A stretch of 31,838 bases of DNA from an uncultured delta proteobacterium (lineage in GTDB: Bacteria > Myxococcota_A > Polyangia > Haliangiales > Haliangiaceae), in NCBI GenBank assembly GCA_963764695.1, contig CAVXTW010000015.1:477845-509682 (forward strand), given 5' to 3'. Every line of letters begins with the position of its first letter. Position 1 is the stretch's first letter. The notes under the pieces are model-generated. The model was not told where the DNA came from and made no database searches. It was given only the letters and a program-made list of their open reading frames with translations. The position numbers and the translations under genes are program-made. Shown here piece after piece: positions 1 to 31,838 of the stretch.

Positions 1-122
1 ATCGCGTCGAGTACCACGTGTTCACGATAGCGTGTTCGGTCGAACGCGACAACGATGAATCAGGCGCGGACCTGGACGTGTGGGCGCGTGTCCCGTTCGT
101 GAGGCGGGTGCGGTCTGCGCGA

Positions 123-887
123 CTACTCTTTCCGGGGATTGCCGGCGAGCAGCCGGCTACCCGGGTTGCCATCGGGGAACGTCACCTCGGCCGCGCTCGG
201 CCGGATGTAAACGGGAGTACCCGTCCGGGCCACGTTAACGCGCGATCCGGCGAGCGCAAGTCGCGCGACCGAGCGGGCCGTCGGCGTGATGCGCGCGCGA
301 GCGAGTGGCTCGGCGGCGCCGGCCAGGGCTGCACCATGAGACTCGAGCGCGTCGCCGATCAGCACCGCGCGCGAAAGCTGCGCCTCGCGCAGGAGCTCGG
401 CCACCACTGCGGCGAGCTCCGCCGGAACCATGATACGCTCCGCCCCCATCGCGTCGACGCGGTCGCCCTCGACGCGGAAGAAGCCGGCGCAGACCTCGCC
501 GCGGCGGGCATCGAAGGCCGGCACGACCAGCGTGTCGGCCAGCGGTTCGACGGCCGCGGCGTCCAGCGCCAGCGCCGCGAGCGAGGACACCGACCACAGC
601 GGCAGCCCGGTGGCGAAGCACAGCCCCTTGGCGGTGGCCATGCCGATGCGCAGGCCGGTGAAGGAGCCGGGGCCGGCGCCGATCGCGACCGCGGCCAGCT
701 GGGCGAGCTCCACGCCGGCCTCGCCGAGCACGCCGTCGATCAGGGCGATCAGGTCGTCGCTGCGGCTCTCGGCGCGCCCCTCGGCGGAGAGATCCACGCC
801 GGGCCCCAGGAGCGCAACGCTTGCGACCCGGGTCGATGTGTCGATGGCGAGGACCGGAGACACCCCGGGTGTACCGCTCCAATCCAT
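123..887 (-). CDS. tsaB: tRNA threonylcarbamoyladenosine biosynthesis protein TsaB (YeaZ)
   Basis: 254-aa ORF with the YeaZ/TsaB hallmarks AIDTST...SVAL and GPGSFTGLRIG...AKGL; divergent from the next gene. Confidence 0.85.
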   Translation of the reverse strand: MDWSGTPGVSPVLAIDTSTRVASVALLGPGVDLSAEGRAESRSDDLIALIDGVLGEAGVELAQLAAVAIGAGPGSFTGLRIGMATAKGLCFATGLPLWSVSSLAALALDAAAVEPLADTLVVPAFDARRGEVCAGFFRVEGDRVDAMGAERIMVPAELAAVVAELLREAQLSRAVLIGDALESHGAALAGAAEPLARARITPTARSVARLALAGSRVNVARTGTPVYIRPSAAEVTFPDGNPGSRLLAGNPRKE

Positions 888-961
888 GCTGTAGCGCCTC
901 CTACCACGTCTGGTACGCTGGTGAAAGACCCGTGGCCCTGAGCTCGGACGTCAAGAAGGGG

Positions 962-2740
962 ATGAAGCCGGAGGAGCTGGAAGAGCTACTCAACGGCCTC
1001 GAGAAGCTGCTGGAGCGCACGAAGGTGCTCTACGAGCAGTACTTCATGGGCATCCAGAAGATGGCCCCGCTGCAGCTGCACCGCGACGTCGAGCGCAAGG
1101 TGCGCGAGCTGATGCAGCAGCAGATCCGCAACACGGCGCTGCGGTTCCGGTTCACGACGATCAGCCAGAAGTTCGGGTCGTACTCGACCTACTGGAAGCG
1201 GACGCTGCGCGAGATCGAGCAGGGCAAGTACGTGCGCGACCTGGCCCGGGTCAAGCGCAAGGCCGACCAGATGGGCGAGGAGCTGCCCGAGGAGCTGCTG
1301 GTCAAGCTGCCCAAGCTGGTCCAGGACCGGATCCGGCGCGATCGCGAGCGCATGGCCGAGCGCGCGATGCGCGACGCCGAGCACGAGATCCGGGCGCGGG
1401 GCACGTCTGCCGGCGACAGCGGCGCCGACGACAGCCTGGCGCTGCACGAGATCAGCGACGTCGAGGCGCAGAGCCTGTTCAACGAGGGCGACCTGGACCT
1501 GGACAAGGTGTTCGAGGCGCTGACCGAGGCGCCGGCGCCCGAGGGGACGCCGGTTCCGGGCGCGACCCGGGCGGTGCCGGCCGCGGACGAGTCGGATGCC
1601 CGGCGCTCGGTCGACTTGCTGGAGCCGGATACGGAGACGCTGGAGCCGGACGGCGGCGGGGCGCCGGCGATGGATTCGTGGGCGGAGTCGCCGGAGCCGG
1701 ACGAATCGCCGGAGCCGGCCGTGGAGCCGCCGACGCCGGCAGAGTCGATGGTGGCCCAGGGCAAGGGACGCGCGGCCCGCGCCAGGGGTCGAACCGTGAC
1801 GTCGCCGATGGGCAAGGCGATCGCGGCGAGCCGGCCGTCAACCTCGGACGCATCGGATGCGTCGGACGGGTCGGATGCCCAGCCGGTCGCGCCGGTCGCG
1901 GACCCGCCGGTCGCGGACCCGCCGGTCGCGAACCCGCCGGTTGCGGCTCCCCCGGTCGCGGTCCGGTCAACCCCGCCGGTGTTCCGGGTCCCGCTGCCGC
2001 CGGGGGCAAGCCCGCGGCCGAGCGCGACCCCGCCGGAGCCTCCGGCTGCGGTGCCTCTGCCTCCCGTGCTGCCGCGCACCGCGACCGGGCCCCAGACCGC
2101 GCCCGCGCCCGTGCCGCCGCGGACCATGACCGGCCAGACGCCGCCCGTGTCGCCGGGCCCGCCCCCGCCCGTGCCGCCGCGGACCATGACCGGCCAGACG
2201 CCGCCCGTGTCGCCTGGCCCGGCCCCGCCCGTGCCACCGCGGACCATGACCGGCCAGACGCCGCCCGTGCCGCCGCGGACCGTGACCGGCCAGCAGACGC
2301 CGCGCGCCGCCACCGGACAGCCGACGCCGCGGGCCGCGACCGGCCAGCCAGTCCCACCGCGGACCGTGACCGGGCAGCAGACCCCGCCACCCCGCGCCGC
2401 CACCCCGCCGCCTCCGCCACGTGGCGCGACTCCGCCGCCTCCGCCTCGGGCTGCGACCGCGCGCCGGGCCGAGCCGCCTGCGCACCCGGCGCCCGACCTG
2501 CCGCCCGGCATGGACGACCGCGAGTGCCGCGAGCTCTATGCGCGCTACCTCAAGGCGCGCCAGCTTGTCGGCGAGAGCAACGACGACGTGACCTACGAGC
2601 GCCTGGTGAGCTCGCTCAGCAAGCAGGCCAGCGCGATCATGAACCAGCACAGCGCGCGGGGCGTCCAGTTCCACGTCGTGGTGCGCGGCGACAAGGTCGT
2701 GCTCAAGGCCAAGCCGCTCAAGCCGGGCAAGGACGAGTAG
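962..2740 (+). CDS. Pro-rich repeat protein with conserved N- and C-terminal domains (hypothetical)
   Basis: ATG at 962 preceded by AAGGGG. The listed ORF start at 821 adds an unlikely 47-aa leader. The charged helical N-domain (MKPEELEELLNGLEKLL...) and a globular C-domain (ECRELYARYLKARQL...) flank about 300 aa of PPVPPRTMTGQTPPVSPGP-type repeats. Confidence 0.6.
   Translation: MKPEELEELLNGLEKLLERTKVLYEQYFMGIQKMAPLQLHRDVERKVRELMQQQIRNTALRFRFTTISQKFGSYSTYWKRTLREIEQGKYVRDLARVKRKADQMGEELPEELLVKLPKLVQDRIRRDRERMAERAMRDAEHEIRARGTSAGDSGADDSLALHEISDVEAQSLFNEGDLDLDKVFEALTEAPAPEGTPVPGATRAVPAADESDARRSVDLLEPDTETLEPDGGGAPAMDSWAESPEPDESPEPAVEPPTPAESMVAQGKGRAARARGRTVTSPMGKAIAASRPSTSDASDASDGSDAQPVAPVADPPVADPPVANPPVAAPPVAVRSTPPVFRVPLPPGASPRPSATPPEPPAAVPLPPVLPRTATGPQTAPAPVPPRTMTGQTPPVSPGPPPPVPPRTMTGQTPPVSPGPAPPVPPRTMTGQTPPVPPRTVTGQQTPRAATGQPTPRAATGQPVPPRTVTGQQTPPPRAATPPPPPRGATPPPPPRAATARRAEPPAHPAPDLPPGMDDRECRELYARYLKARQLVGESNDDVTYERLVSSLSKQASAIMNQHSARGVQFHVVVRGDKVVLKAKPLKPGKDE
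1895..1965 (+). repeat. 15-bp tandem repeats (gccggtcgcggaccc) encoding PVADP x ~4
   Basis: Direct read of near-identical 15-mers within the CDS. Confidence 0.6.
2101..2290 (+). repeat. 60-bp tandem repeat, ~2.7 copies, in-frame (PPVPPRTMTGQTPPVSPGPA)
   Basis: Rows 2101-2160, 2161-2220 and 2221-2265 are nearly identical at exact 60-nt period; degenerate 'accggccag' repeats continue to ~2400. Confidence 0.8.
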
Positions 2741-2746
2741 GCGCGC

Positions 2747-4113: not shown

Positions 4114-7100
4114 CTAGTGGGGCTGGGCGCTGCTGCCACTGTCGGCGAAGCGCGTCCGGCCGGTGTGATTCCACCAGTCGAGCCAGCGCTGCCGGGCCTG
4201 CTCGCGCTCGCGGCGCGGCAGATCGTGGTGGTAGCCGAAGTACTCGCCGGTCGCCTTGCGCAGGTCCTCGGCGGCGGAGCGGCGGATCTCGGTGTCCTTG
4301 TGGGCCAGGCCTTCGAGCAGCCACTCGATGCGGTTGCGGGTCCGGTTCTTGTCCCACCAGTGGCGCCACTTGCGATTGCTCGGGCCGAAGTCCTGCTTGG
4401 TCAGGCGCACCAGCGCGCGGCCCGCGATTGTCGCCGCCTCGCCGCCGCCGGCGTGGAGGTCGAGCAGGTCCGGGATCGCGCTGATGTCGGCCAGCTCGCC
4501 CAGCGCGGTCGCCGCGCACTCGATGGTGGTGAGATCGTCGCCGTGCAGCGCGCGTCGCGCGACAGCCAGCGCCGCGGCCAGGTGGGGCTGCGGATACGAC
4601 GCCAGCGCCTCGATCGCGATCGCCCGGGTGCCGCGGTCGGGGTCGAACAGCCGCTCGACCAGCGGCGGCAAGAGCGCCTCGAGCCGCATCTCCGACGCGC
4701 ACAGCGCGGCGTAGTAGCGGACGTCGTTGCCGCTGTCGCGCAGCTTCTCGCTCACCACGTCGGCCGCCGGCGCGCCCATCCGCACCGCGAGCTCGAGCAG
4801 GTGGCCGTGCTGGGCCGCGCGCACGTGGCGGCCGCCGATCTGCCGGCGGTCGAGGATGAGCCGGCCGGGGAAGTGGCGCCGCAGCCACGGCAGCACGTCG
4901 GCCGGCCGGGTGAGTGCCTCCTCCATCGCGCCGGCCGCCGCGGCGTCGTTGGCGCCGTCGACCGCGACCATCAGCGCCTCGACCTCGGGCGGGATCGGAA
5001 TGTCGGCCGCCGCGCTGCCGCTCGCCACCCGCGACTCGCCGGGCCGCGGGATCTCGCCCAGCAGGGTCGGCATCACGTCCGGCGAGACCGCCGCCATGCG
5101 CACTGTCGCGCGGTCGTCGACGCGCTCGGGCGCCTCCGCATCCGCGCGCTGGTCGACCGGCGCGTCCGCGGGCGGCGTCGCGGCCGGCATCTGCCTGCTC
5201 TGCGACATCGCCTTGCCGCGCATGATGATGCGGCCGAGCGCCTCGCTGGCGGTGGCGGCCAGCGGCAGGATCTCCGACGCCTCCGCCACCATCAGCATGT
5301 CGCCGCCGCGATGGCCGATGACCAGCGCCACCACCCGGTTGCGCAGCACCACCGGCAGCAGCAGCGCGCTCGGCGGGATCACGCCGCCCAGCCGCCGGAT
5401 CATCGCGTCGATGTCCTTGTCGCCGGTGGTGACCGGGCCGATGTAGGGCGACGCCGTGTTCACCGCCTGGCGGAACGCCGACGCGGTGTCGAGCGGGATG
5501 AGCACCTGGGCGATGTTGCTCTGCTCCACCTCGTCGCCGGCGATGGCCACGCGGCCGATGGCGGCCCCGCCCTGCACGGTCAAGAGGCCGACGTACCAGG
5601 TGCGCGCGCGGATGGCGCGCAAGAGGATCTGGAAGACCTCGTCGCGATGCTCGGCCGCTCCCAGCATCGCGCGCGCCTCGCTCACGCTGAGCGGCGTCGG
5701 GTCGAAGCCGCCCATGCGGCGGACCGACTGCGTGGTCGCGCCCGAGTCGCCCGCCATCGGCCCGGTCGGCGCCGACGGCAGCGGGGCGACCGGCGGGCCG
5801 CTTGCCTCGTCCTGCGGCCCGATCTCGCCGCTGACCGCGCTCGGACCGCGGCCGTCGTCGAACCGCGCCATCGGCGCGGTGACCGCCAGCCCGCCCGAGT
5901 CGGGGCCGTCGTACTCGATCACCACCTCGGCGGAGCTGCCGGACAGCACCTCGGGCGCGTCGCCCGCCGACCCGTCCGGCACCGTGTCCTCCGGCACCAG
6001 CGGCAGCGGCTCGTCGGTGGTGTGTCGCCTGTATGCCTCGGCCGCCTTCTGATCGACCTCGATCTGTCGCTGGCGCACCGCCTCCGGCGTCATGTCGCGC
6101 GTGCGCCGCCCGCTCGGATGCAGCGGCTGCGCGTCGGCCAGCGCCAGTGCCGCCGGCGTGGGCGCCGTGATGGCCCCGGACGCGTCGAAGGGCGCCGTCA
6201 CCTGTGCCTCGAGCGCCGCCTCGGCCGCGTTCATCGCGACCTGCGGCATGTTCGCCGCGACCGGGGCCGCAGCCGACGCGTCGGCAGCAGCCGCGGCCTC
6301 GGCAGCAGCCGCATCCGCCGCCGCCGCCGCAGCGGCCTCGGCAGCCGCCGCGTCCTCAGCAGCCTGGGCGTCGGCAGCGGCCTGGGCCTGCGCGTTCGCC
6401 CACGCTGCCTCCTGGGCCTCCACAGCAGCCCGCGCCTCGGCAGCCGCCCGGGCCTCTTCTGCAGCCTGCGCCTCCGCAGCCCGCGCCTCTTCCGCAGCCC
6501 GCGCCCCTTCCGCAGCCCGCGCCCCTTCCGCAGCCCGCGCCCCTTCCGCAGCCCGCGCCCCTTCCGCAGCCCGCGCCCCTTCCGCCGCCCGCGCCTCGGC
6601 AGCCGCCCGCGCATCTTCCGCAGCCCCGGCAGCAGTCCGCGCCCCGGCAGGAGCCCTGCCCCCGGCAACCTCAGCGTCCGCAGCCGCCTGCGCAGCGATC
6701 GCGGCCGCGCCCGGCCTGGTCTCCGCCGCCGACGGCGCAGCGGCCCAGCGCGCGGCCGCCGCATCGGCGCCCGGCCTGGTCGCCTCGTCGGTCGGCGCCG
6801 AGGCCGCACGCGCCTCCACATCAGCGACCACCACACCGGGCGACGTGTCCACCCCGGCCAGCGCTGCAGCGAGCGCGCCCGGCCTGGTCTCCTCCGGCGC
6901 CGGCGCCGAGGCGATGCGGGTCGGGGCCGACGCCACCGCCACGGCCGGGTCGAGCCTGGTCGGCTCGGCGGCCGGCGGCTGGGCGAGCGTGCCCACCACC
7001 ACCGACGGCGAGCCGCCGACCGGCGGGATCATCGACGGACGCGACGCCTCGGCCAGGCGCATGAACCGATCGTCGCTGGCCCGCCCGTACACGCGGTCGA

Positions 7101-7530
7101 AGGCCAGCTCGAAGCGAAACTCCGGCGCCACGAACGGCTGCACCGGCGCGCCCAGCTCGCTGGCCAGGTCCTCGAGCAGCCCGAGGTCAACCGGATCGCG
7201 CGCCAGCACCCGCATGGCGTCGCCGTCGAACGACAGCGGCACGACGCGGAAACGCTCGGCCAGCGCGCGCGGACATCGGCTGGCCGCGCGCGGCTCCATC
7301 CCGTCCAGCTCGCGCGCCGTCGCCGGCGGCAGCCCGGTCGCCAGCGACAGGTACTGCAGGAGCCGCTGCTCGGGCAGAAGGTTCATCTCGAGCAGGATGG
7401 TGTCGAGCGCGCCATCGAACAGCACCTGGCGCTGGAACGCCCGCTCCATCCGCCGCACGTCGACCACACCGTCGCGGACCAGCAGCGAGCTCAGGCGCGA
7501 TGTCCCACTCGTCTGGCTCGTCTCGCTCAT
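4114..7530 (-). CDS. multidomain protein: N-terminal MshEN/GspE-N (T2SSE_N) c-di-GMP-binding-type domain, Ala/Glu-rich low-complexity repeats, GAF-like middle region, C-terminal PBS-lyase HEAT repeats
   Basis: 1138-aa uninterrupted ORF. The N-terminal RLSSLLVRDGVVDVRRMERAFQRQ fits the 24-residue MshEN motif RLGxx(L/V/I)(L/V/I)xxG(L/V/I)(L/V/I)xxxx(L/V/I)xxxLxxQ. The central region has (EARAAEGARAA)n and three ETRPGA repeats. The C-terminus has HEAT-like D.D..VR..A..ALG repeats. Confidence 0.75.
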   Translation of the reverse strand: MSETSQTSGTSRLSSLLVRDGVVDVRRMERAFQRQVLFDGALDTILLEMNLLPEQRLLQYLSLATGLPPATARELDGMEPRAASRCPRALAERFRVVPLSFDGDAMRVLARDPVDLGLLEDLASELGAPVQPFVAPEFRFELAFDRVYGRASDDRFMRLAEASRPSMIPPVGGSPSVVVGTLAQPPAAEPTRLDPAVAVASAPTRIASAPAPEETRPGALAAALAGVDTSPGVVVADVEARAASAPTDEATRPGADAAAARWAAAPSAAETRPGAAAIAAQAAADAEVAGGRAPAGARTAAGAAEDARAAAEARAAEGARAAEGARAAEGARAAEGARAAEGARAAEEARAAEAQAAEEARAAAEARAAVEAQEAAWANAQAQAAADAQAAEDAAAAEAAAAAAADAAAAEAAAAADASAAAPVAANMPQVAMNAAEAALEAQVTAPFDASGAITAPTPAALALADAQPLHPSGRRTRDMTPEAVRQRQIEVDQKAAEAYRRHTTDEPLPLVPEDTVPDGSAGDAPEVLSGSSAEVVIEYDGPDSGGLAVTAPMARFDDGRGPSAVSGEIGPQDEASGPPVAPLPSAPTGPMAGDSGATTQSVRRMGGFDPTPLSVSEARAMLGAAEHRDEVFQILLRAIRARTWYVGLLTVQGGAAIGRVAIAGDEVEQSNIAQVLIPLDTASAFRQAVNTASPYIGPVTTGDKDIDAMIRRLGGVIPPSALLLPVVLRNRVVALVIGHRGGDMLMVAEASEILPLAATASEALGRIIMRGKAMSQSRQMPAATPPADAPVDQRADAEAPERVDDRATVRMAAVSPDVMPTLLGEIPRPGESRVASGSAAADIPIPPEVEALMVAVDGANDAAAAGAMEEALTRPADVLPWLRRHFPGRLILDRRQIGGRHVRAAQHGHLLELAVRMGAPAADVVSEKLRDSGNDVRYYAALCASEMRLEALLPPLVERLFDPDRGTRAIAIEALASYPQPHLAAALAVARRALHGDDLTTIECAATALGELADISAIPDLLDLHAGGGEAATIAGRALVRLTKQDFGPSNRKWRHWWDKNRTRNRIEWLLEGLAHKDTEIRRSAAEDLRKATGEYFGYHHDLPRREREQARQRWLDWWNHTGRTRFADSGSSAQPH
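6478..6590 (-). repeat. 18-bp tandem repeat x ~6 (plus-strand unit gcccgcgccccttccgca) encoding AEGARA repeats
   Basis: Direct read; near-perfect copies at 18-nt period inside the giant CDS. Confidence 0.75.
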
Positions 7531-7567
7531 CTCTGGCTCATCCTCGGATCATCTCCCCCGCTCACGG

Positions 7568-8248
7568 TCATGACTCGGCCACGACCACGTAGGTCCCGGC
7601 CAGCCAGTCGTGCAGCGCCCGCTTCTCGCTGTCGAACCCGATCCAGAAGAAGCCCAGCCCCAACGTGACGAGGCTGGCCAGATAGGCGGCGGTGCGCGCC
7701 GCGGTGCGCGGGATCGACGGTGAATCGCCGAACAGATCGATGACGCGCACGCGCAGGACGCGCATGCCGAGCGTGCGTCCGGTGGTGGCCTGGAACAGAA
7801 ACAGATAGATGAGGGCGATGGCGAGCGCCAGCCCGATGCCGCCGACCAGCGCCGGCTCGCCGGCCAGAAACATGTCCAGCCAGAAATCCAGCCCGCGGAA
7901 GTTCGACGGCGGCAGCCGGATGCCGGTGATGACCGCAGCCAGCCAGGTGAGAAGCAGCATCACCGGCGCCAGCACGCCCAGATCGATGAGCGCGGCGGCC
8001 AGCCGTCGCCAGAACCCGGCCACATAGAAGGTGGGTGCCGCCGTGCGACCGCCGCGCGGCACCGGCTGACGCGGCCCCGGATGCGGCGGGTGACCCTGCT
8101 GATGCCCGTGCTGATGCGACGGATCCCAGCCCGGCTGGTGGGCGCTATTGCGCACGCGACCATCCGGGTCGCGGCGCCCCCCTGGGCCCACCGCTCGTTC
8201 CCCCGGATCCGCGCCCAGTATTGCCGGTTGCCGCACGGACATTGTCAT
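7568..8248 (-). CDS. RDD family membrane protein
   Basis: Start taken at MTMSVRQP (ATG 8248) rather than the listed 8431. The RDD-domain pattern RRLAAALIDL...GRTLGMRVLRVRVID...KRALHDWLAGTYVV and TM helices are present. Confidence 0.75.
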   Translation of the reverse strand: MTMSVRQPAILGADPGERAVGPGGRRDPDGRVRNSAHQPGWDPSHQHGHQQGHPPHPGPRQPVPRGGRTAAPTFYVAGFWRRLAAALIDLGVLAPVMLLLTWLAAVITGIRLPPSNFRGLDFWLDMFLAGEPALVGGIGLALAIALIYLFLFQATTGRTLGMRVLRVRVIDLFGDSPSIPRTAARTAAYLASLVTLGLGFFWIGFDSEKRALHDWLAGTYVVVAES

Positions 8249-8276: not shown

Positions 8277-9035
8277 TCAAATCTCGCCGAGGACGTACGC
8301 GAGGATCGCGGCTCCCGCAACTGCTGCCGTGTCGGCGCGCAAGATCCGGGCACCCAGTCCCACTGCCGCGAACCCGGCAGCGGTCGCCGCCTCGACCTCG
8401 CCGGCGGACAGACCGCCCTCGGGTCCCACAAGCACCGCGACCGTGGCCGGCGGCCGCTCGGGCAGGGCCGATCGCAGCGGAACTGCCTTCGCCTCCTCCC
8501 AGAAGACCAGTTTCAGCTCCGCGTCCGCCGTCCGCGCAAGTGCCTGGTCGAGGCTGCAGATCGGGTCGACCACCGGCACCTGCATGGCCCGACATTGCTG
8601 GACCGCCGCCCTCACCTGGACGCGGAAGCGCTCGCGCCGCTTCTCGGCCCGCTCCCCGTCCAGCCGCACCACCGACCGCTCGGCGGTCAGCGGCACGATG
8701 CGCCCCACCCCGAGCTCGACGAGCTTGGTGAGACAGTAGTCCATCCGCTCACCCTTGATGAGCGACAGGATGACGGTGAGCCGCGCGGCCGTGCGCGGCG
8801 AGGCGACCGCGGTGCGCGCCCCCACGTCCAGGGCCGCGCTGCGCGAGCCGACGCTCTTGACCTCCGCCTCGGCCTCGCACCCTTCTCCGTCGAACAAGAG
8901 CAGCCTGTCACCCGGGCGCATGCGGCGCACGTGAAACAGGTAGTGGTAGTCCTCGCCGCGCACGCTGCGCTCGCCGGGCACCAGCTCCGACGGTGGGATC
9001 AGGACCCGGAGCAGCTGAGCAGCACCGCGCTCCAC
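8277..9035 (-). CDS. rsmE: 16S rRNA (uracil1498-N3)-methyltransferase RsmE
   Basis: Family hallmarks HYLFHVRRMRPGDRLLLFDGEG, LIKGERMDY, VGPEGGLS. The listed start overlaps prmA by 37 nt, so the true start may be internal. Confidence 0.8.
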   Translation of the reverse strand: MERGAAQLLRVLIPPSELVPGERSVRGEDYHYLFHVRRMRPGDRLLLFDGEGCEAEAEVKSVGSRSAALDVGARTAVASPRTAARLTVILSLIKGERMDYCLTKLVELGVGRIVPLTAERSVVRLDGERAEKRRERFRVQVRAAVQQCRAMQVPVVDPICSLDQALARTADAELKLVFWEEAKAVPLRSALPERPPATVAVLVGPEGGLSAGEVEAATAAGFAAVGLGARILRADTAAVAGAAILAYVLGEI

Positions 9036-9787
9036 GCCGTGTCCTCCTCGTCCCGGCGCAGCTCTTCCAGCGCCATCCCGTGCCCGCGATATCGATCGGC
9101 GACAGGCTCAGCCTGCTCCGACAACAGGCCGCTCAGCGCCAGCCATCCGCCCGGCGCCACGCGCTCGCACAGCGGCGCCGCCAGCTCGGCCAGGACGTCG
9201 GCCTGGATGTTGGCCAGCGCGAGGTCGAACGGGCCGCGCAGCTCGCGCAGGTCCGCGTTCGAGGTCTGGATGCGCGCGGCCCGGTTGGCGGCGATGTTCT
9301 CGGCCGCCACCGCGACCGCGGCGGCGTCGTTGTCGACCGCCAGCACCTCGGCCTGCGGCCACAGCACCGCCGCGCCCAGGGCCAGGATCCCGGACCCGGT
9401 CCCCAGATCGAGCACGCGCGCCGGGCGCACGCCGCGATCGGCGAGGTCCTGCAGGATGCGCAGGACCAGCCGGGTCAACGCATGGGCCCCGGTGCCGAAG
9501 GCCTGGCCCGGATCGAGGTGCACCACCCGATCGTCGGGCCCCGGCTGGTGGCTGTCCCAGCTGGGCACCACCACGATCTGCCGCGTGAGCCGTACCGTCC
9601 GGAAGTAGCGCTTCCACGCGTCGCGCCACTCCGCTTCGGGCGCCGCCTGGCGCGAACTGACCCCGGCCGGGTCCAGCGGCTGCCCGGTCGCGGCCAGCGA
9701 GGCGGCCGCCGTGCGCGCGGCCTGCTCGGCCTCGGGGGCGCGCTCGGCCGGCACCCAGAAGACGACCTCCCGGGCCCGCACCTCCAC
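8999..9787 (-). CDS. prmA: ribosomal protein L11 methyltransferase PrmA
   Basis: DPGQAFGTGAHALTRL and DLGTGSGILAL SAM motifs. PrmA-like N-terminal sequence (LTDWVEISIPV) continues in-frame upstream to ~9901 with no ATG/GTG/TTG, so the true start may be CTG at 9901 or the start was lost. Confidence 0.8.
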   Translation of the reverse strand: MEVRAREVVFWVPAERAPEAEQAARTAAASLAATGQPLDPAGVSSRQAAPEAEWRDAWKRYFRTVRLTRQIVVVPSWDSHQPGPDDRVVHLDPGQAFGTGAHALTRLVLRILQDLADRGVRPARVLDLGTGSGILALGAAVLWPQAEVLAVDNDAAAVAVAAENIAANRAARIQTSNADLRELRGPFDLALANIQADVLAELAAPLCERVAPGGWLALSGLLSEQAEPVADRYRGHGMALEELRRDEEDTAWSAVLLSCSGS

Positions 9788-9985
9788 GCCGCCGGCAGCA
9801 TCCGGGACGGCCGCCGCGAGCAGGGCAGCTGCCTCGTCTGCGGCGCCGTCGTCCGGCGCGCCGCCGATGACGGGGATCGAGATCTCGACCCAGTCAGTCA
9901 GAGCGCGCCGCCGTTCGCCCGATGCCGTGACCGGCAGGCGTGAGCGTCGTCAGCCACGAATTTCTCCGTCCCCCCGCCGGGGCGC

Positions 9986-18491: not shown

Positions 18492-18502
18492 ACCATCTCG
18501 CA

Positions 18503-19558
18503 GTGACGCTCGAGCTGAGAAGTGTGGTCAAGCGCGTCGGCGCCGAGACCCACATCTACGAGACCAGCGTGGTGTTCGCCGAGGAGGGTTTCAACATCCT
18601 CCTCGGCACCACGCTGTCCGGCAAGACCACGCTGATGCAGCTCATGGCCGGGCTCGAGAAGCCGAGCTCGGGTGAGGTCTGGTTCCGCGGAAAGAACGTG
18701 ACCGGCGTGGCCGTGCAGAAGCGCAACGCCGCCATGGTCTACCAGCAGTTCATCAACTACCCGAACTTCTCGGTGTTCGACAACATCGCGTCGCCGCTGC
18801 GGGTCGCGGGGCTGAAGTCGGCCGAGATCAAGACGCGGGTCCACAAGGTGGCGGAGCTCTTGCGGCTCACGCCGATGCTGAAGCGGCGGCCGGCCGAGCT
18901 GTCGGGCGGGCAGCAGCAGCGCACCGCGCTGGCCCGCGCGCTGGTCAAGGACGCCGACCTGGTCCTGCTCGACGAGCCGCTGGCCAACCTGGATTTCAAG
19001 CTGCGCGAGGAGCTGCGCGACGAGCTGCCCGCGCTGTTCACCAACCGGCGCTGCACGGTCGTGCTGGCCACGTCCGATCCGACCGAGGCGCTGCTGCTGG
19101 GCGGCCACACCGCGGCGCTGCACGAGGGCAACGTCACCCAGTTCGGGCCGACCGCCGAGATCTACCGCAAGCCGGCCAATGTCCTGACCGCGCGCGTCTT
19201 CTCCAACCCGCCCATCAACATGGCGCCGGTGGCGGTCGAGAACGGCAGCGTGGTGCTGAGCGACACCGTGAAGTGGCCGGTCCGCGGCGTCACGCTGGCC
19301 GACGGCAGCTACACCGTCGGCATCCGCCCGCACCACATCAGCCCGATCGCCAACGGCAAGGCCGCGGCGCAGATCGAGGGGCGTGTGCAGATCGCCGAGA
19401 TCAGCGGCTCCGAGAGCGTCATCCACTTCGAGCACGGCGAGCTCAGCTGGGTGTCGCAGTCGCACGGCGTGCACGCCATCGCCGTGGGCGAGACGGCCAA
19501 CTTCTTCATCGACGTCGAGCGCTGCATGTTCTTCGACGGCGACGGAAAGCTGATCTGA
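18503..19558 (+). CDS. ABC transporter ATP-binding protein (MalK/UgpC-like with C-terminal TOBE-like domain)
   Basis: Walker A GTTLSGKTT, Q-loop, signature LSGGQQQR, Walker B LVLLDEPL. Stop overlaps the next start (TGATG). Confidence 0.85.
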   Translation: MTLELRSVVKRVGAETHIYETSVVFAEEGFNILLGTTLSGKTTLMQLMAGLEKPSSGEVWFRGKNVTGVAVQKRNAAMVYQQFINYPNFSVFDNIASPLRVAGLKSAEIKTRVHKVAELLRLTPMLKRRPAELSGGQQQRTALARALVKDADLVLLDEPLANLDFKLREELRDELPALFTNRRCTVVLATSDPTEALLLGGHTAALHEGNVTQFGPTAEIYRKPANVLTARVFSNPPINMAPVAVENGSVVLSDTVKWPVRGVTLADGSYTVGIRPHHISPIANGKAAAQIEGRVQIAEISGSESVIHFEHGELSWVSQSHGVHAIAVGETANFFIDVERCMFFDGDGKLI

Positions 19559-20644
19559 TGGCCCGCATCACGCTCCAGAAGGTGCGGCACAGCTATCACG
19601 CGAAGCCGAAAGACCCGGCCGACTGGGCGCTCAAGGAGCTCGATCTCGAGTGGCGCGACGGCGGCGCGTACGCCCTGCTCGGCCCGTCCGGCTGCGGCAA
19701 GACGACGCTGCTCAACATCATCTCGGGGCTGGTGCGGCCGACCGAGGGGCGGGTGCTGTTCGACGGCGCCGACCTGACCGACGTGCCCACCGACCGGCGC
19801 CACATCGCGCAGGTGTTCCAGTTCCCGGTCGTCTACGACACGATGACCGTGCGCGACAACCTGGCCTTTCCGCTGCGCAACCGCGGCCTGCCCGAGGCGG
19901 ACATCCAGGCCAAGGTGGAGGAGATCGCGCGCATGCTCGATCTCGAGCCGCATGCTGGGCCGGCGCGCCTCGGGGCTGACGGCCGACGGCAAGCAGAAGA
20001 TCTCGCTCGGCCGCGGGCTGGTCCGCTCCGACGTCAACGTCATCATGCTCGACGAGCCGCTGACGGTCATCGACCCGCACCTCAAGTCGCAGCTGCGCTC
20101 CAAGCTGCGCGAGCTGCACCAGCGCATCACGCGCACGATGATCTTCGTGACCCACGACCAGACCGAGGCGCTGACCTTCGCCGACCAGGTGGTGGTCATG
20201 CACGACGGCACCGTGGTGCAGATCGGGTCGCCGGTCGAGCTGTTCGAGAAGCCGCAGCACACCTTCGTGGGTCACTTCATCGGCTCGCCGGGCATGAACG
20301 TGCTGCCGTGCGAGCTCAACGGTGACTCGGCGCTGCTGGCCGGGACCAAGGTCCGCGTGGACAACCCGCCGGCCGGGCCGCTCGACGGCAAGCGCCTCGA
20401 GATCGGCGTGCGCCCGGAGTTCGTGAAGCTGGCGAAGGAGGGCATCCCGGTCCGCATCGTGCGGGTGAGCGATGCCGGCCGCCACCGCATCGTCAACGCG
20501 CGCCACGGCGAGATCGGCATCAAGCTGCTCGTCGACGACGGCGTGCCGGTGCCGAGCGAGGTGGCCCACGTGCAGTTCGACCAGGCGCACACGCGCCTGT
20601 ACGCCGACGGCTGGCTGGTGGAGAAGGACGCCGACCGGGGCTGA
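19558..20644 (+). CDS. second ABC ATP-binding protein (MalK-like) with degenerate signature motif; reading frame broken near 19951-19957
   Basis: N-terminal half in frame 1 (Walker A GPSGCGKTT ... LDLEPH); C-terminal half in frame 2 (GRRASGLTADGKQKISLGRGLV, Walker B VIMLDEPL, H-loop VTHD, TOBE-like tail). Joining them needs one nucleotide removed. The signature reads LTADGKQK instead of LSGGQRQR. Confidence 0.7.
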
Positions 20645-20656
20645 CCGAGGTCAGAG

Positions 20657-22324
<1,668 letters not shown>

Positions 22325-22337
22325 GGGAGCGACGACC

Positions 22338-22625
22338 ATGTGGAGCAAGCTCTCGTGGATGGCGTGGACCTGGCAGACGGCTGTCTTCTTCCTGGCCATC
22401 GGCTTCTTGCTCCTGTGCATGGCCATCTGGGAGTGGCGCCGTCCGGGCGGCGCGCCCCGCCGCGGCATCCTGCGCATCGACACCACCCGCGGCGACCGCC
22501 TGTTCATCTCGCTGCTCGGCACGGCCTTCATCTTCCTCGGCTGGCTGGCCGCATTCGGCAGCGGCCTGTGGGGCGCGGCGGCCGTCGCCGTCGTCTACGC
22601 GCTCGCCGTCTTCCGCTGGGTGTGA
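22338..22625 (+). CDS. small 2-TM membrane protein (DUF2160-like accessory protein of glycerol-type ABC operons)
   Basis: GAGGGAG RBS 8 nt upstream; product MWSKLSWMAWTWQTAVFFLAIGFLLLCMAIW...LGWLAAFGSGLWGAAAVAVVYALAVF has two hydrophobic helices. The family assignment is from memory. Confidence 0.6.
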   Translation: MWSKLSWMAWTWQTAVFFLAIGFLLLCMAIWEWRRPGGAPRRGILRIDTTRGDRLFISLLGTAFIFLGWLAAFGSGLWGAAAVAVVYALAVFRWV

Positions 22626-22632
22626 GCGCCGC

Positions 22633-23595
22633 GTGAAGGCACTCCGCTTCTCGGACGCGCCGAGGCTCGAAGAAGTGGATGAGCCGCGGCCGGGTCCCGA
22701 CGAGGCCTTGATCCGCGTCCGCCGGGCCGGCATCTGCACGACCGACCTCGAGATCGTGCGAGGCTATCTCGGCTTCCGGGGCACCCTGGGCCACGAGCTC
22801 GTCGGCGAGGTGGTCGATGTCGGAGGGGGCGAGGGCCGCGAGTGGGTCGGCGCGCGGGTGACCGGCGAGATCAACCTCGGCTGTGCGCGGTGCGAGCGAT
22901 GCCTGTCCGGCCTGTCTCGGCACTGCGCGACCCGGACAACCCTGGGCATCGTCGGCAAGGACGGCTGCTTCGCCGAGTACGTGACCCTTCCAGTCCGCAA
23001 CCTGCACCGCGTCCCCGAGGGCCTGTCGGACGCTGTCGCCGCGTTCACCGAACCGCTCGCCGCCGCCTACGAGATCCTCGAACAGCTGCGGGTGGAGCCG
23101 GACAGCCGCGTGGCCGTCCTGGGCGACGGCAAGCTCGGCTCCCTGGTCGCACTCGTCCTGGTGCAGACCGGCGCCGACGTCACGCTGGTCGGCCGCCACC
23201 GCCACAAGCTGGAGAAGGTGGCCAGCCGCGGCGTGCGGACAGCGATGGTCGATGAGAGCATCGGTGGCAACTTCGACCTGGTCGTCGAGGCGACCGGCTC
23301 GGCCGCCGGCTTCGAGCGAGCCCGGTCCCTTCTGCGCCCACGTGGGACCATGGTCCTCAAGAGCACCTACCACGGCAAGCTCGAGCTAGACGCCGCGCCC
23401 CTTGTCATCGACGAGATCACCGTCGTCGGCTCGCGCTGCGGCCCCTTCGCCCCCGCCCTGCGCGCCCTGAAGGAGGGCCGCATCGATCCGGCGCCGTTCA
23501 TCGAGGACGCCTATCCCCTCGCCGACGGCCTGGCCGCGCTCGAGCGCGCCGCGACACCCGGCGTGGCCAAGGTCCAGCTTCTCTGCGAGGCGTGA
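22633..23595 (+). CDS. zinc-dependent alcohol/polyol dehydrogenase (MDR superfamily)
   Basis: GTG 22633, 8 nt after the upstream stop. Catalytic-zinc GHELVGEV, structural-zinc C-x2-C-x2-C-x7-C (CARCERCLSGLSRHC), Rossmann GDGKLG. Confidence 0.8.
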   Translation: MKALRFSDAPRLEEVDEPRPGPDEALIRVRRAGICTTDLEIVRGYLGFRGTLGHELVGEVVDVGGGEGREWVGARVTGEINLGCARCERCLSGLSRHCATRTTLGIVGKDGCFAEYVTLPVRNLHRVPEGLSDAVAAFTEPLAAAYEILEQLRVEPDSRVAVLGDGKLGSLVALVLVQTGADVTLVGRHRHKLEKVASRGVRTAMVDESIGGNFDLVVEATGSAAGFERARSLLRPRGTMVLKSTYHGKLELDAAPLVIDEITVVGSRCGPFAPALRALKEGRIDPAPFIEDAYPLADGLAALERAATPGVAKVQLLCEA

Positions 23596-23641: not shown

Positions 23642-24249
23642 TCAGCGGCCGGCGATCGGCTCGGCGCCGAGCTCGCGCATGACCTGGCGGAAGACCGGGA
23701 GCTCCTGCGCGCCCTGCACGGCGAGGCGGCCGTCGAAGATGAAGGTCGGCACGGCGTGGATGCCGAGCTCGTTCGCCTCGCGGACGCTCTCCTCGACGGT
23801 AGCGCGGTAGGTGCCGGCCTCGATCGCGGCCTGCAGCTCGTCCGGGTCGATGCCGACCTCGGCTGCCGCGCCGCGCAGGGTCTCGAGCGCGTACAGGTCC
23901 TGGCCCTCGGTCCAGTAGCGCCGCAGCAGCGACGCGTGCATCGGGTTCAGCTGGCCGTGCACGCGCGCGAGCTCGGCCGCCTCGTGGGCGCGCCGCGTGG
24001 AGGGCACGATCTCGCGGCGCACCATGACCAGGCCCTCGCGCTCGGCCCGCTTCTTCAGCGGATCGTTCGGGTCACTGGCCCGCGCACGCACGTACGCCGG
24101 CAGCGGTCGCCCCTCCGGCGGCGTGTCCGGTCGGAGGAAGAACGGCCGCCAGTCGACGGTGAGGTCATATTCCCGGCCCAGCTTGGCGATCTCGACGAGA
24201 CCGACGTAGCACCAGGGTCAGACGAAGTCGGACCAGATCGCGACGTCCA
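23642..24249 (-). CDS. DsbA/FrnE-like thiol:disulfide oxidoreductase with in-frame TGA (24217-24219) at first Cys of CPWC (candidate selenocysteine) and a 1-nt frame break near 24181-24183
   Basis: Minus-strand ATG at 24249 gives MDVAIWSDFV-TGA-PWCYVGLVEIAK; continuing with one inserted nt gives LGREYDLTVDWRPFFLRPD...IHAVPTFIFDGR, the FrnE/DsbA thioredoxin fold. The ORF track shows only the C-terminal 149 aa (23642-24091). Confidence 0.6.
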
Positions 24250-24324
24250 TGTATGGGGAATATAGAGCTGTGGCCGGGTGCGTCAAGCGAGTGTCCCGGG
24301 TCGCCTGCCCGGTATACTCATCCC

Positions 24325-26796: not shown

Positions 26797-28333
26797 CTAC
26801 TCGATCTCCATCACCATGGTCCCCGACGAAAGCGCCTCGCCGACTAGCCGTGTGAGCTCGGCCAGGATCTGGTCGGCGGTTGGCACCGTGCATCCCTCGG
26901 ACGGGTCAACACGTTCGAAGGAGGGCGCTCTGGAAGGCGCCACCCGCCGAAGCAGTTCCAAAAACTTCGGAGTCACTGGAATGGTCTCCACGAGATGCGA
27001 AGCATCCCGGAATCCGCCTTCCACGGCGTCAACGAATGGCAGCCGCTCCCCGCCATCGCTCATGTCCGAGAGAGCCTCGAGGATCCATCGCCAGTAGACA
27101 TCCGAGAGGACAAGCTCCGACTGGTGCGAACGGAACCGCGCAAATCCCTGGATCGGCCGGCTGACAAGGAACCGGGTGCGGTCCGAGGGATTGTTCGCAG
27201 TCACCGCAACTCCGTTCGTCAGAAAGGTGTTACTTGGGGGCCCGCGCCGGCCATCACCAGGGCGGGCACGTCGCTCGCAGGGATCGGTCGGGCAGTCAAC
27301 GTAGTCGTCGGGGAGCGGGGAGACAGGCTGGCCCTGATCCCCATTCTCGAGGCCCTTGGTGCCCTCGTACTGGTTGCCGAAGACGGTCAGCCCGGCCGAT
27401 GGTTCGTCGTCATAGAGGATGTTGGGGTCGTTCACTCCGGCGAAGGCGTTGTTCTCGACGACTGCGCGCGCCTCGACGCCGGCCCCGATGCAGTAGTTGT
27501 TGCCGGCGGCGGTGTAGTAGTTGTTGAGCAGGTGCACGTAGCCGAAGCGCATGCGGGGCATGCGCTCGACGACGCCGTCGGCCCACCAGTTGTGGTGGAA
27601 CGTGACCCGCAACCGGCCCTGGTCCTCCGCCTGGTTGTCGTCGTCGTGACCGATGAGATTGGAGAAGCGGTGATCGGCTGGCGCCGCGTCGGTGTAGTGG
27701 AACAGGCTCGACGAGATCGTCACGTTGTCGGAGCCGTGCGTGACGTCGAGATTGCCGTCGGGGGCGTCGAACACATCGACGTGGTCGATCCAGATGTGGT
27801 GGGCAAAGAAGATCTGGATCCCATCCTCGATGTCGGTCGTGGTGCCGTCAACGTGCAGGTTGCGGATGATGACGTTCGAGATGCGCTCGGTGAGGCTCTC
27901 GCCGTGGATGCGGATCCCGCCGCGGATCCCGGAATCCGGCCCCACACCGACGATCGTCTTGTTCGACGCCACGTCCAGCGCCGGCGTGTCGAGCATGCCG
28001 TCGAACGTGAATGACGCGCGGCTCGGGGTCCTCGGCCAGCGCCAGAAGCTCCTCGGCCGTGGTCACGGTGATGGGAGGCTCTTCTCCGCCCCCGGTCGTG
28101 GTCGGCACGCCGTCGCCGGCGACTGCAGCCCAGCCGCACAGACCTTCGGCGGGCGGGACGACCGGTGCACCGTCGGACAGATCGCCATCTCCGCCGCCAC
28201 CGCCGTCGGCGCCCGGCTGCCCGGCGGCGTCCATCCCCTCCCCGCCCGACTCGGAGTCGCTACAGGCCGACAGCGAGGCCGCGGCCAGCAACGCAATCGC
28301 AGCCGCTGGCAGGAAGCAGGCTCGAGTCCACAT
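26797..28333 (-). CDS. pectate lyase (PL1) lipoprotein with C-terminal extension; reading frame broken near 28001-28006
   Basis: N-terminal lipoprotein signal (MWTRACFLPAAAIALLAAASLSAC) and ...TVTTAEELLALAEDPEPRVIHV in one frame; DGMLDTPALDVASNKTIVGVG, NVIIRNL, WIDH, HNWW, RMPRMRFGYVHLLNNYY in the other (ORF 26797-27996). Removing one t in gtt restores ...RVIHVDGMLD... Confidence 0.7.
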
Positions 28334-28502: not shown

Positions 28503-29952
28503 TTGCATCGCCACGGGCCGATGCAGCCTCCGGTGGCACTGTCCCGAAGCTCGGCCTTCTCCTGTCGCTGGCGGGTCAAGGACCGGCTGGTCGCGTCGCT
28601 CGAGCCCTTCATCGGCGATGTCGCCCGGCGCGTGGCCGGACGGGAAGGCCTGCGCGACGCGGTGGTGGCGGCGGCGAGCGCGGCGCCCGACCTGGCTCGC
28701 CACTTCGACTTCAATCCGTCGCGCCCGGCCGGCGACTTCGACTTTGGCTTGAAGCCTTCGATCCTGCACCGGGAGGACGATGCGGTCAACGACATGACCT
28801 TCTGGGCCGGCGACCGCGATGTCCGCCTGCATCTCGAGATGTCGGACAACTGCCTGCGGCCCATCGCCGACCTTGTCGAGCGGTCTGCCCGCGCATCGTT
28901 CTCTGCCGACCAGCTGCGAGCGGACCTGCCCGACGACCTGCACACGCTGTTCGACGAGCTGCTCGACTGCGGCTTTCTGTCGGAGGCGGCGGAATCGACC
29001 GCGACGCGCCCCCGCTGGAACGCGGCCGCGCCCGGCATCACTCGCCTGCAGCACGCGTCGCTTCTTTACAGGACGGGCACGACCTCGGTGCTCGTCAATC
29101 CCCACTTCCATTCCGGGCTCGGGGGCGCGGCCACGTCGAACCATCGACCTGGCCGACCTCGGTCGCGTCAACGCCATCGTCATCTCGCACGGCCACGCCG
29201 ACCACTGGTACCTGCCCACCTTGATGCTGTTCCCGCGCGATACGCCGATCATCGTCCCGGAGGCCCCGGGCTCGACGATCCTGTGCGACGACTTCGTCGC
29301 CGTGCTGCGCGGCCTGGGCTTCCGCCACATCGTCCCGCTGGCGTGGTACGCGCCGCCCCATGTCGTCGGTGACCTCGAGATCCACGCGCTGCCGTTCTAC
29401 GGCGAGCAGCCGCTCCTGACCGAGCAGCCGCGCGACCCGGCCCTGCGCAACTGGGGCAACACATACGTCGTCCGCAGCGACGGCTTCACGTCCTGGTTCC
29501 TCATCGACGCCGGCCAGGACGCCTCCGGCAGCATGGCCGACGTCGCGCAGCACGTCCGCTCGCAGTTCGGCCCGATCGACTTCCTGCTCAGCAACCTGCG
29601 CCCCTTCTGCGCGTCCACGCCGTTCTACATCACCAGCGGCCACTACTGGCTATCACTGACGGCCGACCAGATGCAGCGCTTCCCCTCGATGCGAGACCAC
29701 TGCATCACCCTGTCACCGCCCGGAGTCGCCGAGGTCTGCCGCATCACCCAGGCTCGCCACTTCCTGCCCTACGCCCACTGGTGGTCTGCCCTCGGCGCCC
29801 GCATCGAGCGCGAGGATCGCCTCCTCACCTGGCTATCCGACGAGCTGGCCCGAAACCGAGCCGGCACGCGCATCCTCGACTGGACCGTCGGCGACCAGCT
29901 TCACGTCCGCAGCGCAGGGTCCGCGGATGTCCGCCCTCCAGACCGGGCTTGA
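28503..29952 (+). CDS. metallo-beta-lactamase-fold hydrolase with ~200-aa unrecognised N-terminal domain; reading frame broken near 29115-29140
   Basis: Frame 0 ORF (28503-) gives the N-domain through ...LLYRTGTTSVLVNPHFHSG; frame 1 ORF continues RTIDLADLGRVNAIVISHGHADHWYLP (HxHxDH). Start uncertain: TTG 28503 or ATG 28521. A GGGGG run at 29121-29125 is a likely indel site. Confidence 0.65.
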
Positions 29953-31013: not shown

Positions 31014-31049
31014 GCCTGACCCTACTACGGACAGTCTGGACTGTGAGCT

Positions 31050-31071: not shown

Positions 31072-31095
31072 ACCTTCTCGAGACCGCACTATCGG

Positions 31096-31117: not shown

Positions 31118-31136
31118 CAGCATCGGAGAACGATCC

Positions 31137-31559
31137 GTGGCATTCCAGGAAAAGTCGGCGTGGATCATGTCCCTCGCCCTGCTCGTGGGCGGCGTCTTCT
31201 ACTTCGGCGTCGTGGCCCTGATGTCGTCGGCGATCGGCAGGCTGGCGCCCCCGATCCTGCCGGTCGTCGCCGTGTACACCGGCATTCTGGTCCTCATCGC
31301 GATCGTCGGCCACATCGTCGCCGCGGTCCTCGCGCCTCGCGATGCCGGCGCGCCGGTCGATGAGCGCGACCGCGCAGTCACCACGCGAGCCGGCCACCGC
31401 TCCGGCTACGTCTTCGGCGCCGGCGCGATCCTGTCGCTCGGGTTCTACCTCTTCAGCTACGACGGAAACGTCCTCTTCTACGGCGTCTTCGCCAGCCTCA
31501 TGATCAGCCAGCTGGTCGAGTACGGCACGCAGATCTATCTCTACCGGACGACCGTGTAG
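31137..31559 (+). CDS. small multi-TM membrane protein (partner of XRE regulator; DUF2975/YoaS-like)
   Basis: GTG after GGAGAA at 6 nt; product has 3-4 hydrophobic helices. Confidence 0.6.
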   Translation: MAFQEKSAWIMSLALLVGGVFYFGVVALMSSAIGRLAPPILPVVAVYTGILVLIAIVGHIVAAVLAPRDAGAPVDERDRAVTTRAGHRSGYVFGAGAILSLGFYLFSYDGNVLFYGVFASLMISQLVEYGTQIYLYRTTV

Positions 31560-31563
31560 GGCG

Positions 31564-31779
31564 ATGGCTCGCCGGCTGCCGATCGCCAACCGCGTGCGCG
31601 AGCTCCGCGAGCGACATGGAAGCATGACGCAAGCAGAGCTGGGCGAGGCCATCGGGGTCACGCGCCAGACGATCATCGCCATCGAACAGCGGCGATACTC
31701 GCCCTCGCTGGAGAGCGCCTTCCGCATCGCCCGCGTGTTCGACCTGGGCGTGGACGACGTGTTCACCTGGGACGAATGA
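31564..31779 (+). CDS. XRE-family helix-turn-helix transcriptional regulator (YozG-like)
   Basis: MTQAELGEAIGVTRQTIIAIEQRRYSPSLESAFRIARVF is a classic Cro/C1 HTH; starts 5 nt after the membrane-protein stop. Confidence 0.8.
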   Translation: MARRLPIANRVRELRERHGSMTQAELGEAIGVTRQTIIAIEQRRYSPSLESAFRIARVFDLGVDDVFTWDE

Positions 31780-31838
31780 GCGCCGACCAGGGCGTGACCA
31801 GGCCGGGCTATCGGGCGCGCTCGCTCAGGCCGTCCGGG
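31776..31838 (+). CDS. 5' end of a further ORF overlapping the regulator stop (ATGA); partial, product unknown
   Basis: ATG 31776 overlaps TGA 31777-31779; reads MSADQGVTRPGYRARSLRPSG to the window end. Confidence 0.3.
   Translation, partial: MSADQGVTRPGYRARSLRPSG

Follow-up and report, generated by a model that had tools for sequence, protein, structure and literature searches.

Probable assembly errors, as single-base insertions and GTCGAC-linked miscalls, in a contig of an uncultured myxobacterium

Homopolymer deletions are the commonest Nanopore error. Pseudogene-rich, host-restricted genomes of the Mycobacterium leprae type carry reproducible disruptions together with relaxed selection and further decay. 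As in such genomes, many unrelated genes are frameshifted in the DNA analyzed here, a stretch of 31,838 nucleotides from an uncultured delta proteobacterium of the Haliangiaceae (the window; contig CAVXTW010000015.1), but here the relatives are intact and pN/pS is 0.02 to 0.09.

Methylation-induced Nanopore errors are strand dependent and show R/Y ambiguity, with RA/TY as the minimal motif (PMC11610573; see also PMC12392509). The A/G and C/T miscalls lie directly 5′ of an A, are concentrated in a short strain-specific motif, depend on the strand, and recur from run to run (Lohde et al. 2024, PMC11610573; PMC12392509), and the window is alike in these respects. It differs from the published cases in its motif, GTCGAC, in its source, an uncultured metagenomic myxobacterium, in that methylation is presumed, and in that insertions accompany the substitutions. 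Annotation damage by long-read indels has also been described (Homopolish, PMC8011154; Sereika et al. 2022, PMC9262707; high-GC Propionibacterium, PMC11649196), with about one indel per 5 kb splitting conserved genes and with truncations, fusions, and extra coding sequences as the outcome. The window has a similar indel density and the same annotation effects. Unlike in those reports, only one of its six indels lies in a homopolymer and all six are insertions; the latter point counts against a Nanopore origin.

The window contains six inserted bases in 4 of its ∼30 genes (13%), or one per 5.3 kb, and these insertions account for all six frame breaks. A first-pass annotation had proposed five 1-nt disruptions in five genes plus a lost PrmA start, together affecting about 20% of genes. 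Four of those genes (ABC ATPase 2, permease 1, a pectate lyase, and an MBL-fold protein) are indeed broken, while the fifth, a DsbA-like gene, reads in a single frame; both the count of disruptions and the proportion of genes needed correction, and pectate lyase alone has three insertions, two of which hide its stop. Attribution to indels left uncorrected in a long-read or MAG-type assembly fits the four frame-broken genes but not the DsbA-like gene or the PrmA start (two of the six items). Nor are all other genes intact, as had been stated, since the window joins the pectate lyase open reading frame (ORF) artificially to its neighbor, and motif-linked substitutions occur in several genes whose frames are unbroken. 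The first-pass annotation did not include ∼15 base substitutions at GTCGAC-type sites in the window or the two insertions at the 3′ end of pectate lyase.

From the sequence comparisons below, the breaks are very probably consensus errors of a Nanopore-type assembly, accompanied by miscalls at GTCGAC, and the genes are most likely intact in the organism. The DNA of an uncultured, Kofleriaceae-like myxobacterium with high GC would have been assembled from long reads of the Nanopore type, with no polishing by accurate reads, where “Nanopore” is read from the error signature and from the naming of a sister contig. One kind of error would comprise purine/purine or pyrimidine/pyrimidine miscalls and single inserted bases in or next to the palindrome GTCGAC, which is presumably methylated by a SalI-type methyltransferase. 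A second kind would be a small number of single inserted bases elsewhere, including one within a homopolymer of G. Together the six insertions would break four unrelated genes, with neither the TGA of the DsbA-like gene nor the absent start of PrmA belonging to the error pattern.

Frame-broken genes and their intact relatives

ABC ATPase 2 (ABC_tran and OB_MalK domains; 19558..20644, + strand) belongs to a glycerol-type ABC transporter operon and is split by one extra C, with the frame change at 19948-19949 (GAG[C]CGCATG). Its Pfam halves lie in two different frames, and outgroup proteins align in frame 1 up to 19944 (residues 1 to 129) and in frame 2 starting at 19952 (residues 132 to 354). 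ABC permease 1 (BPD_transp_1; 20657..21527, + strand) is split by an extra C at 20892 (CTGG[C]TCATC). Across 289 aa, the corrected product matches an intact JGI protein (P0001) at ∼100% identity.

The assemblies of relatives came from JGI (L084, L085, and L089), carried a metaMDBG-style name (L086), or were built from short reads with MEGAHIT (L088); a JGI contig of sample 3300041965 was available as a gene table only, with no DNA. ATPase 2 is intact in five other close-relative assemblies with 91 to 98% nucleotide identity (JGI sample 3300041965, L084, L086, L087, and L089). L084 and L086 have one C fewer at the site, and the unbroken gene encodes 361 aa in L089 as well as in the contigs of P0001 and P0002, compared with 355 aa in L087. 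Permease 1 is likewise intact in five (JGI sample 3300041965, L084, L085, L086, and L087); the last four lack the extra C, and L089 does not reach the gene. L084 is 97.9% identical to the window, and in 5,075 aligned bases the only two gaps are the two extra Cs. Against L089, no uncompensated indel was seen across 6.7 to 19.6 kb of the window. Measured against L084, ATPase 2 has a pN/pS of 0.09 and permease 1 one of 0.017; both genes are thus under strong purifying selection, with no sign of relaxation. The SBP values of this calculation were out of frame and were left out.

Both extra Cs are shared with the sister contig (ENA ERZ25039516 contig_1386; 764 kb, 99.7% identical, Flye-style name), and this is the weakest point of the assembly-error reading. 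Between the two contigs there are 144 substitutions and one in-frame indel of 15 nt, and neither insertion lies in a GTCGAC motif or a homopolymer, which would have pointed to a systematic cause. These observations would suit a real, very recent inactivation inherited from a common ancestor, in which a glycerol-type transporter was lost while the other breaks may be errors. We consider this improbable. It needs two independent recent frameshifts in adjacent genes that are intact in all other close relatives, and the pN/pS values imply that selection acted during practically all of the time since the split from L084. Neither broken gene has further stops or indels, and the remaining operon is undamaged. 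Furthermore, the two contigs share at least one motif-linked error (position 9477) and may not be independent data. The disruption of a genuine pseudogene would be reproduced in independent assemblies; neither of these two is seen in the close-relative assemblies, which represent other strains.

Two candidate explanations within the operon were discarded. The 8-mer GATCTCGA occurs a few bases 5′ of both shared insertions, but 13 of its 15 copies in the window are clean. Relaxed selection in the ATPase genes had been suggested by residues unlike those of 60 to 74 outgroups at conserved sites; closer relatives have the same residues as the window, and it is the sister contig that deviates.

The pectate lyase gene (PL1, with a lipoprotein signal; 27230..28333, − strand) has three inserted bases by three-frame reading: an extra A at 28004-28005 (GTCGA[A]CGTG), one base at 27283, and one in the G run at 27236-27240. 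In the long ORF, the Pfam Pectate_lyase_4 match lacks its first 26 positions, and the corrected junction (PRVIHVDGMLD) is collinear with PDB 7bbv and 3zsc. The two 3′ insertions remove the natural stop, a TAA at 27232-27230, and join pectate lyase to the next ORF, a separate 135-aa frame (26797..27204, − strand) that is its own gene call in the sister contig. There the end of pectate lyase reads in one frame and terminates after PTDAASDVPALVMAGAGPK. The bridging frame (27283-27205) is rich in A/T at third positions, versus ∼90% GC3 for the genome. At the same position of the GTCGAC site, an A is inserted in the window and a T in the sister contig; because the inserted bases differ, this is not an inherited mutation.

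The MBL-fold gene (Lactamase_B_2; 28521..29952, + strand) is split by an extra A at 29139-29140 (GTCGA[A]C), and a switch of GC3 phase is seen around 29050-29100. In the sister contig the site reads GTTGAC with no extra base, and the gene is intact at 476 aa.

The GC3 phase anomaly at 6226-6675, in a gene for a 1138-aa MshEN-domain protein, was considered as a hidden double frameshift and proved to be an Ala/Glu-rich repeat with ∼100% GC at first codon positions. The window contains no Rfam matches at the gathering threshold and no tRNAs by ARAGORN.

Differences between the window and its sister contig

Of the 144 substitutions, 20 hit one of the two middle positions of a GTYRAC hexamer. The window has 54 such hexamers, and their middle positions make up 0.34% of its bases, where ∼0.5 substitutions would be expected. 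Three more are motif linked, at two TCGAT sites (28713 and 29097) and the GTCGAAC site at 29137. All 23 are G/A or C/T differences within TC[R]A or T[Y]GA, while only ∼2 of ∼270 other TCGA sites are affected. The differing GTCGAC-type sites, each with G/A or C/T in the center, are at 236-237, 1612, 1969, 3202, 7189, 7461, 8568, 10365, 24154, 26908, 27298, 27849-50, 28787-88, 29137, 29169-70, 30498, and 30831. At three sites the window has GTCAAC and contig_1386 GTTGAC, each one step away from GTCGAC. On each contig's own plus strand there are 19 G-to-A changes versus 2 C-to-T changes, and the two contigs are oppositely oriented. The direction therefore follows each contig's own orientation, which is impossible for real mutation in a palindrome.

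In reading frames that remain intact, changes tied to the motif, for example, convert D to N four times in the MBL-fold protein and S to L at a conserved serine of PrmA, the ribosomal protein L11 methyltransferase. The latter, at position 9477, is common to both long-read contigs, whereas 10 of 10 homologues (P0121-P0143, including L088 and L089) have Ser; shared errors therefore do occur. Not every one of the 28 GTCAAC hexamers in the window is an error: the copies found in the SBP, M16b, and ATPase 2 genes carry Asn codons conserved in relatives. The divergent sites create rare codons or strike conserved residues, and the real ones are kept in relatives.

Contig_1386 has even more 1-nt indels than the window. 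They break ATPase 1, ATPase 2, permease 2, the 3′ end of pectate lyase, and probably atpD, and they fuse two M16 peptidase genes. Nine of them are concentrated in a hot spot at 18.6 to 20.4 kb, where contig_1386 also carries alleles that resemble distant outgroups instead of its own clade. This could indicate a mosaic consensus of mixed templates, built from reads of co-occurring strains, or of other taxa with this highly conserved operon, that were recruited in the course of assembly or polishing; such cross-recruitment is plausible with operon proteins 80 to 88% identical across many Proteobacteria. For the window, we regard such an origin of the indels as unlikely, as its hot-spot alleles agree with those of clade relatives, no SNP cluster surrounds position 20892, and neither the GTCGAC-linked insertions nor the orientation-dependent substitutions would be accounted for.

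The density of breaks alone might suggest that every disruption is genuine, through a burst of pseudogenization or programmed frameshifting. This is highly improbable. The two contigs have different inserted bases at one pectate lyase site, the MBL-fold gene is intact in contig_1386, the “broken” genes are under purifying selection, and the motif errors depend on orientation. Relatives lack the extra bases and read in one frame, which leaves no slippery site conserved among them.

The DsbA-like gene and the start of PrmA

Two apparent defects differ from the insertions. The DsbA/FrnE-like thiol oxidoreductase gene (23642..24250, − strand) consists of 202 codons in one frame, from an ATG at 24250 to a stop at 23642, interrupted once by a TGA in that frame at 24220-24218 (MDVAIWSDFV-U-PWCYVG). 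The protein aligns over its full length with FrnE (PDB 5cp1), a thiol-disulfide oxidoreductase of the FrnE/DsbA family with a CPWC active site, and the TGA coincides precisely with the first Cys of that site; the Pfam DSBA match (11-189/191) begins directly past it. L087, a single relative with 91% nucleotide identity, has the identical MDVAIWSDFV-stop-PWCYVG and keeps the frame throughout. This TGA is probably a selenocysteine codon at a CxxC site, as in bacterial selenoproteins with a UxxC redox motif. A SECIS-like hairpin downstream has a 7-bp stem and a GUC loop 22 to 24 nt past the UGA, but its folding z-score (−0.65) is not statistically distinctive; it is identical in L087, so it provides no covariation, and it has no Rfam match. 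ORF calling had been thought to miss this gene through indels. The cause is instead its own in-frame UGA.

For PrmA (8999..9937, − strand), the missing start was confirmed: there is no ATG, GTG, or TTG from the upstream stop to 9787, and the conserved N-terminus (LTDWVEISIP) is encoded from ∼9901, ahead of the first usual start. Its explanation as an assembly error was not upheld, because the JGI relative L089 has the same sequence here. In L088, an in-frame GTG stands in place of the window's CCG. No homologue was recovered with the N-terminal 102 aa of PrmA as the query.

Two in-frame CTG codons (9937-9935 and 9901-9899) are present in the PrmA frame. A short leader ORF in another frame (9898..9967, − strand) has a Shine-Dalgarno-like GGAGA at 9967-9963, a GTG at 9957-9955, and 20 codons. 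It ends in a TGA (9900-9898) that shares bases with the PrmA-frame CTG, giving CTGA. This arrangement is present in the window, L088, and L089. It tentatively suggests that part of the pattern is biology, a possibility to which we give limited weight: PrmA may be translated by termination-reinitiation from the leader or by CTG initiation, and, separately, the insertions shared by the two contigs may mark a real recent loss of the glycerol transporter.

Consequences for annotation and strain comparison

In the window contig, and even more in contig_1386, gene calls will be truncated, split, and fused. False amino acid changes (such as D to N and S to L) are to be expected at GTCGAC sites in both assemblies. 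Without methylation-aware re-basecalling or accurate-read polishing, pseudogene counts, pangenome analyses, and SNP-based strain comparisons would be misleading. Two apparent defects, the UGA of the DsbA-like gene and the start of PrmA, should not be “fixed” in the process.

Gene content and the sister contig

The window (70% GC) holds about 30 genes, as judged from a GC3 frame plot and Pfam matches: TsaB, a PALP enzyme, a 1138-aa MshEN-domain protein, RDD, RsmE, PrmA, S21, two M16 peptidases, Lnb_N, a DeoR regulator, a glycerol-type ABC operon (SBP, ATPase 1, ATPase 2, permease 1, permease 2, DUF2160, and ADH), a DsbA-like protein, Uma2, MFS, a pectate lyase, an MBL-fold protein, an esterase, and two small genes. 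The source names of the closest PrmA and permease homologues indicate the Kofleriaceae (Myxococcota). Many Alpha-, Beta-, and Gammaproteobacteria and Anaeromyxobacteraceae MAGs have counterparts of the ABC operon proteins (16569-23595) at 80 to 88% identity. Judged by the organism's housekeeping genes, this similarity is far too high, and horizontal spread of this operon is therefore likely. A frameshift at 6226-6675 (minus strand) was excluded; the MshEN-domain protein carries an Ala/Glu-rich tandem repeat there (ARAAEG units) that displaces the GC3 phase and so gives the impression of a frameshift.

Exact-protein look-ups located a 764-kb contig with a Flye-style name (ENA ERZ25039516 contig_1386, here the sister contig) that matches the full length of the window in opposite orientation at 99.2 to 99.7% identity. 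The sister contig is more damaged than the window. Its ATPase 1, permease 2, and pectate lyase genes have gained or lost bases, and its ATPase 2 has several such changes. At a GTCAAC site (19021 of its piece L001, window 11766), an inserted T joins the two M16 genes into a 1254-aa call; these genes are separate in the window and in L089, a JGI contig from a close relative. Just outside the window, the atpD region (10730-12213 of piece L003) yields small fragment calls only, which suggests frameshift errors in the sister contig's ATP synthase beta-subunit gene, an essential gene.

About 38 substitutions and nine one-base indels fall in a 1.7-kb hot spot at window 18617-20353 (about 6100-7900 of piece L002). 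Here the window shares its alleles with L084, L086, and L087 (the last from a relative with 91% nucleotide identity), while the sister contig resembles distant outgroups and not its own clade. The differences between 18.6 and 20.4 kb are thus attributable to the sister contig, and its outgroup-like alleles and nine indels suggest that its consensus is a mosaic of two templates. The two contigs also differ at 1890-1904, in a gene without a Pfam match (821-2740), by an in-frame indel of 15 nt that looks like genuine strain variation.

Substitutions at GTCGAC sites

The window and the sister contig differ by 144 substitutions. The two central bases of GTYRAC hexamers account for 0.34% of the window but for 20 of these substitutions. 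Another three occur at two TCGAT sites and at a GTCGAAC site (29137). Every hexamer variant is one step off GTCGAC. At three sites, GTCAAC in the window faces GTTGAC in the sister contig, and GTTAAC at window 236-237 faces GTCGAC. Read on the plus strand of each of these oppositely oriented contigs, the changes are 19 G to A versus 2 C to T; mutation in a palindrome cannot track arbitrary assembly orientation. The variants match exactly the errors described by Lohde et al. for Nanopore Kit 14 sequencing of methylated DNA, namely, strand-dependent ambiguity between the two purines (R) or the two pyrimidines (Y) within a minimal RA/TY motif (PMC11610573; a second source for this error pattern is PMC12392509).

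Genuine GTCAAC sites are conserved among relatives; divergent sites of this type produce rare codons or altered conserved residues. The MBL-fold protein has four D-to-N changes at motif sites, including the Asp preceding HGHADH. At 9474-9479, both long-read contigs read GTCAAC, versus GTCGAC in L089 and the MEGAHIT contig L088. The change at 9477 converts the Ser of the PrmA GAHAST motif, present in 10 of 10 homologues read (including L088 and L089), to Leu and is probably a motif-linked error common to both long-read contigs.

Inserted bases in four genes

The first-pass annotation ascribed five 1-nt frame breaks and a lost PrmA start to uncorrected indels. That explanation stands for four genes and now has a mechanism attached, but it fails for the DsbA-like gene and the PrmA start. 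In pectate lyase, the lipoprotein signal and N-terminal ∼110 residues are in a separate frame from the Pfam domain, the match to which begins at profile position 27; the junction is at 28004-28005. Removal of one base yields ...EPRVIHVDGMLDTPALDVASNKTIVGVG..., collinear with solved pectate lyases (VIVVDGTI in 3zsc). The motif site there reads GTCGA[A]C in the window and GTCGA[T]C in the sister contig, another base in the same place. The MBL frame switches near 29139, at the window's second GTCGA[A]C insertion, and the gene is complete (476 aa) in the sister contig.

The 3' end of pectate lyase is a single frame in the sister contig, ending ...PTDAASDVPALVMAGAGPK-TAA. In the window, an additional A at 27283 and a fifth G at 27236-27240 (G4 in the sister contig) put this peptide out of frame, so that the natural stop is bypassed and the ORF continues into a separate 135-aa gene. 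These two breaks had been overlooked and bring the window to six inserted bases in four genes. The earlier count of intact genes was too generous.

The breaks in ATPase 2 and permease 1 are extra Cs shared with the sister contig. Outgroup proteins from syntenic loci align with ATPase 2 in one frame as far as 19944 and then, from 19952, in the next, and permease 1 switches between 20890 and 20892. Repaired permease 1 retrieved full-length 289-aa proteins with 97 to 100% identity from other assemblies. Permease 1 is intact on all contigs carrying them, as is ATPase 2 except on L085, a JGI contig that begins at permease 1; L089 has an intact ATPase 2 and ends short of permease 1. The alignment to L084 (97.9% nucleotide identity) covers 5,075 bases and has just two gaps, at the extra Cs of 19948 and 20892. 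Substitutions relative to L084 are overwhelmingly synonymous (26.8 synonymous versus 7.2 nonsynonymous in ATPase 2 and 19 versus 1 in permease 1). Genuine frameshifts in the two genes would each need to have arisen very recently, independently of the other. We consider it likely that these are artefacts too, with less confidence than for the GTCGAC-linked insertions, because the long-read contigs have one or more motif-linked errors in common and could stem from related data. The 8-mer GATCTCGA (19939-19946 and 20896-20903) lies a few bases 5' of each shared insertion, on opposite strands. The window has 15 copies of this 8-mer versus 1.9 expected, and the remaining copies are error-free. As a discovery, the frame breaks overall are an ordinary data-quality artefact.

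The DsbA-like gene and the PrmA start

The DsbA-like gene, previously read as frameshifted, opens at ATG 24250 and stays in a single frame until its stop at 23642 (minus strand), with one TGA (24220-24218), reading MDVAIWSDFV-TGA-PWCYVG. In alignment, this TGA pairs with the first Cys of the FrnE CPWC site, and it and its flanks are identical in L087, the 91%-identical relative. On this comparison, it is probably a selenocysteine codon in a U-P-W-C active site and not damage. A hairpin with a GUC loop lies 22 to 24 nt 3' of the UGA.

PrmA indeed has no ATG, GTG, or TTG upstream of 9787, and the conserved N terminus LTDWVEISIP is encoded nonetheless. An assembly cause does not fit, as the sequence in L089 is the same and likewise lacks a canonical start. 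Upstream of prmA (9898-9967, minus strand), a conserved GGAGA is followed by a GTG that starts a 20-codon ORF in another frame, the TGA of which overlaps an in-frame CTG of prmA (CTGACTGAC). This arrangement is found in the window, L088, and L089; the sole difference in L088 is GTG for the window's CCG. Because the start region matches in L089 and the leader ORF is kept in L088, the unusual start is a property of the lineage and not an assembly error. Two of the six items first listed, the DsbA-like TGA and the PrmA start, are thus real biology.
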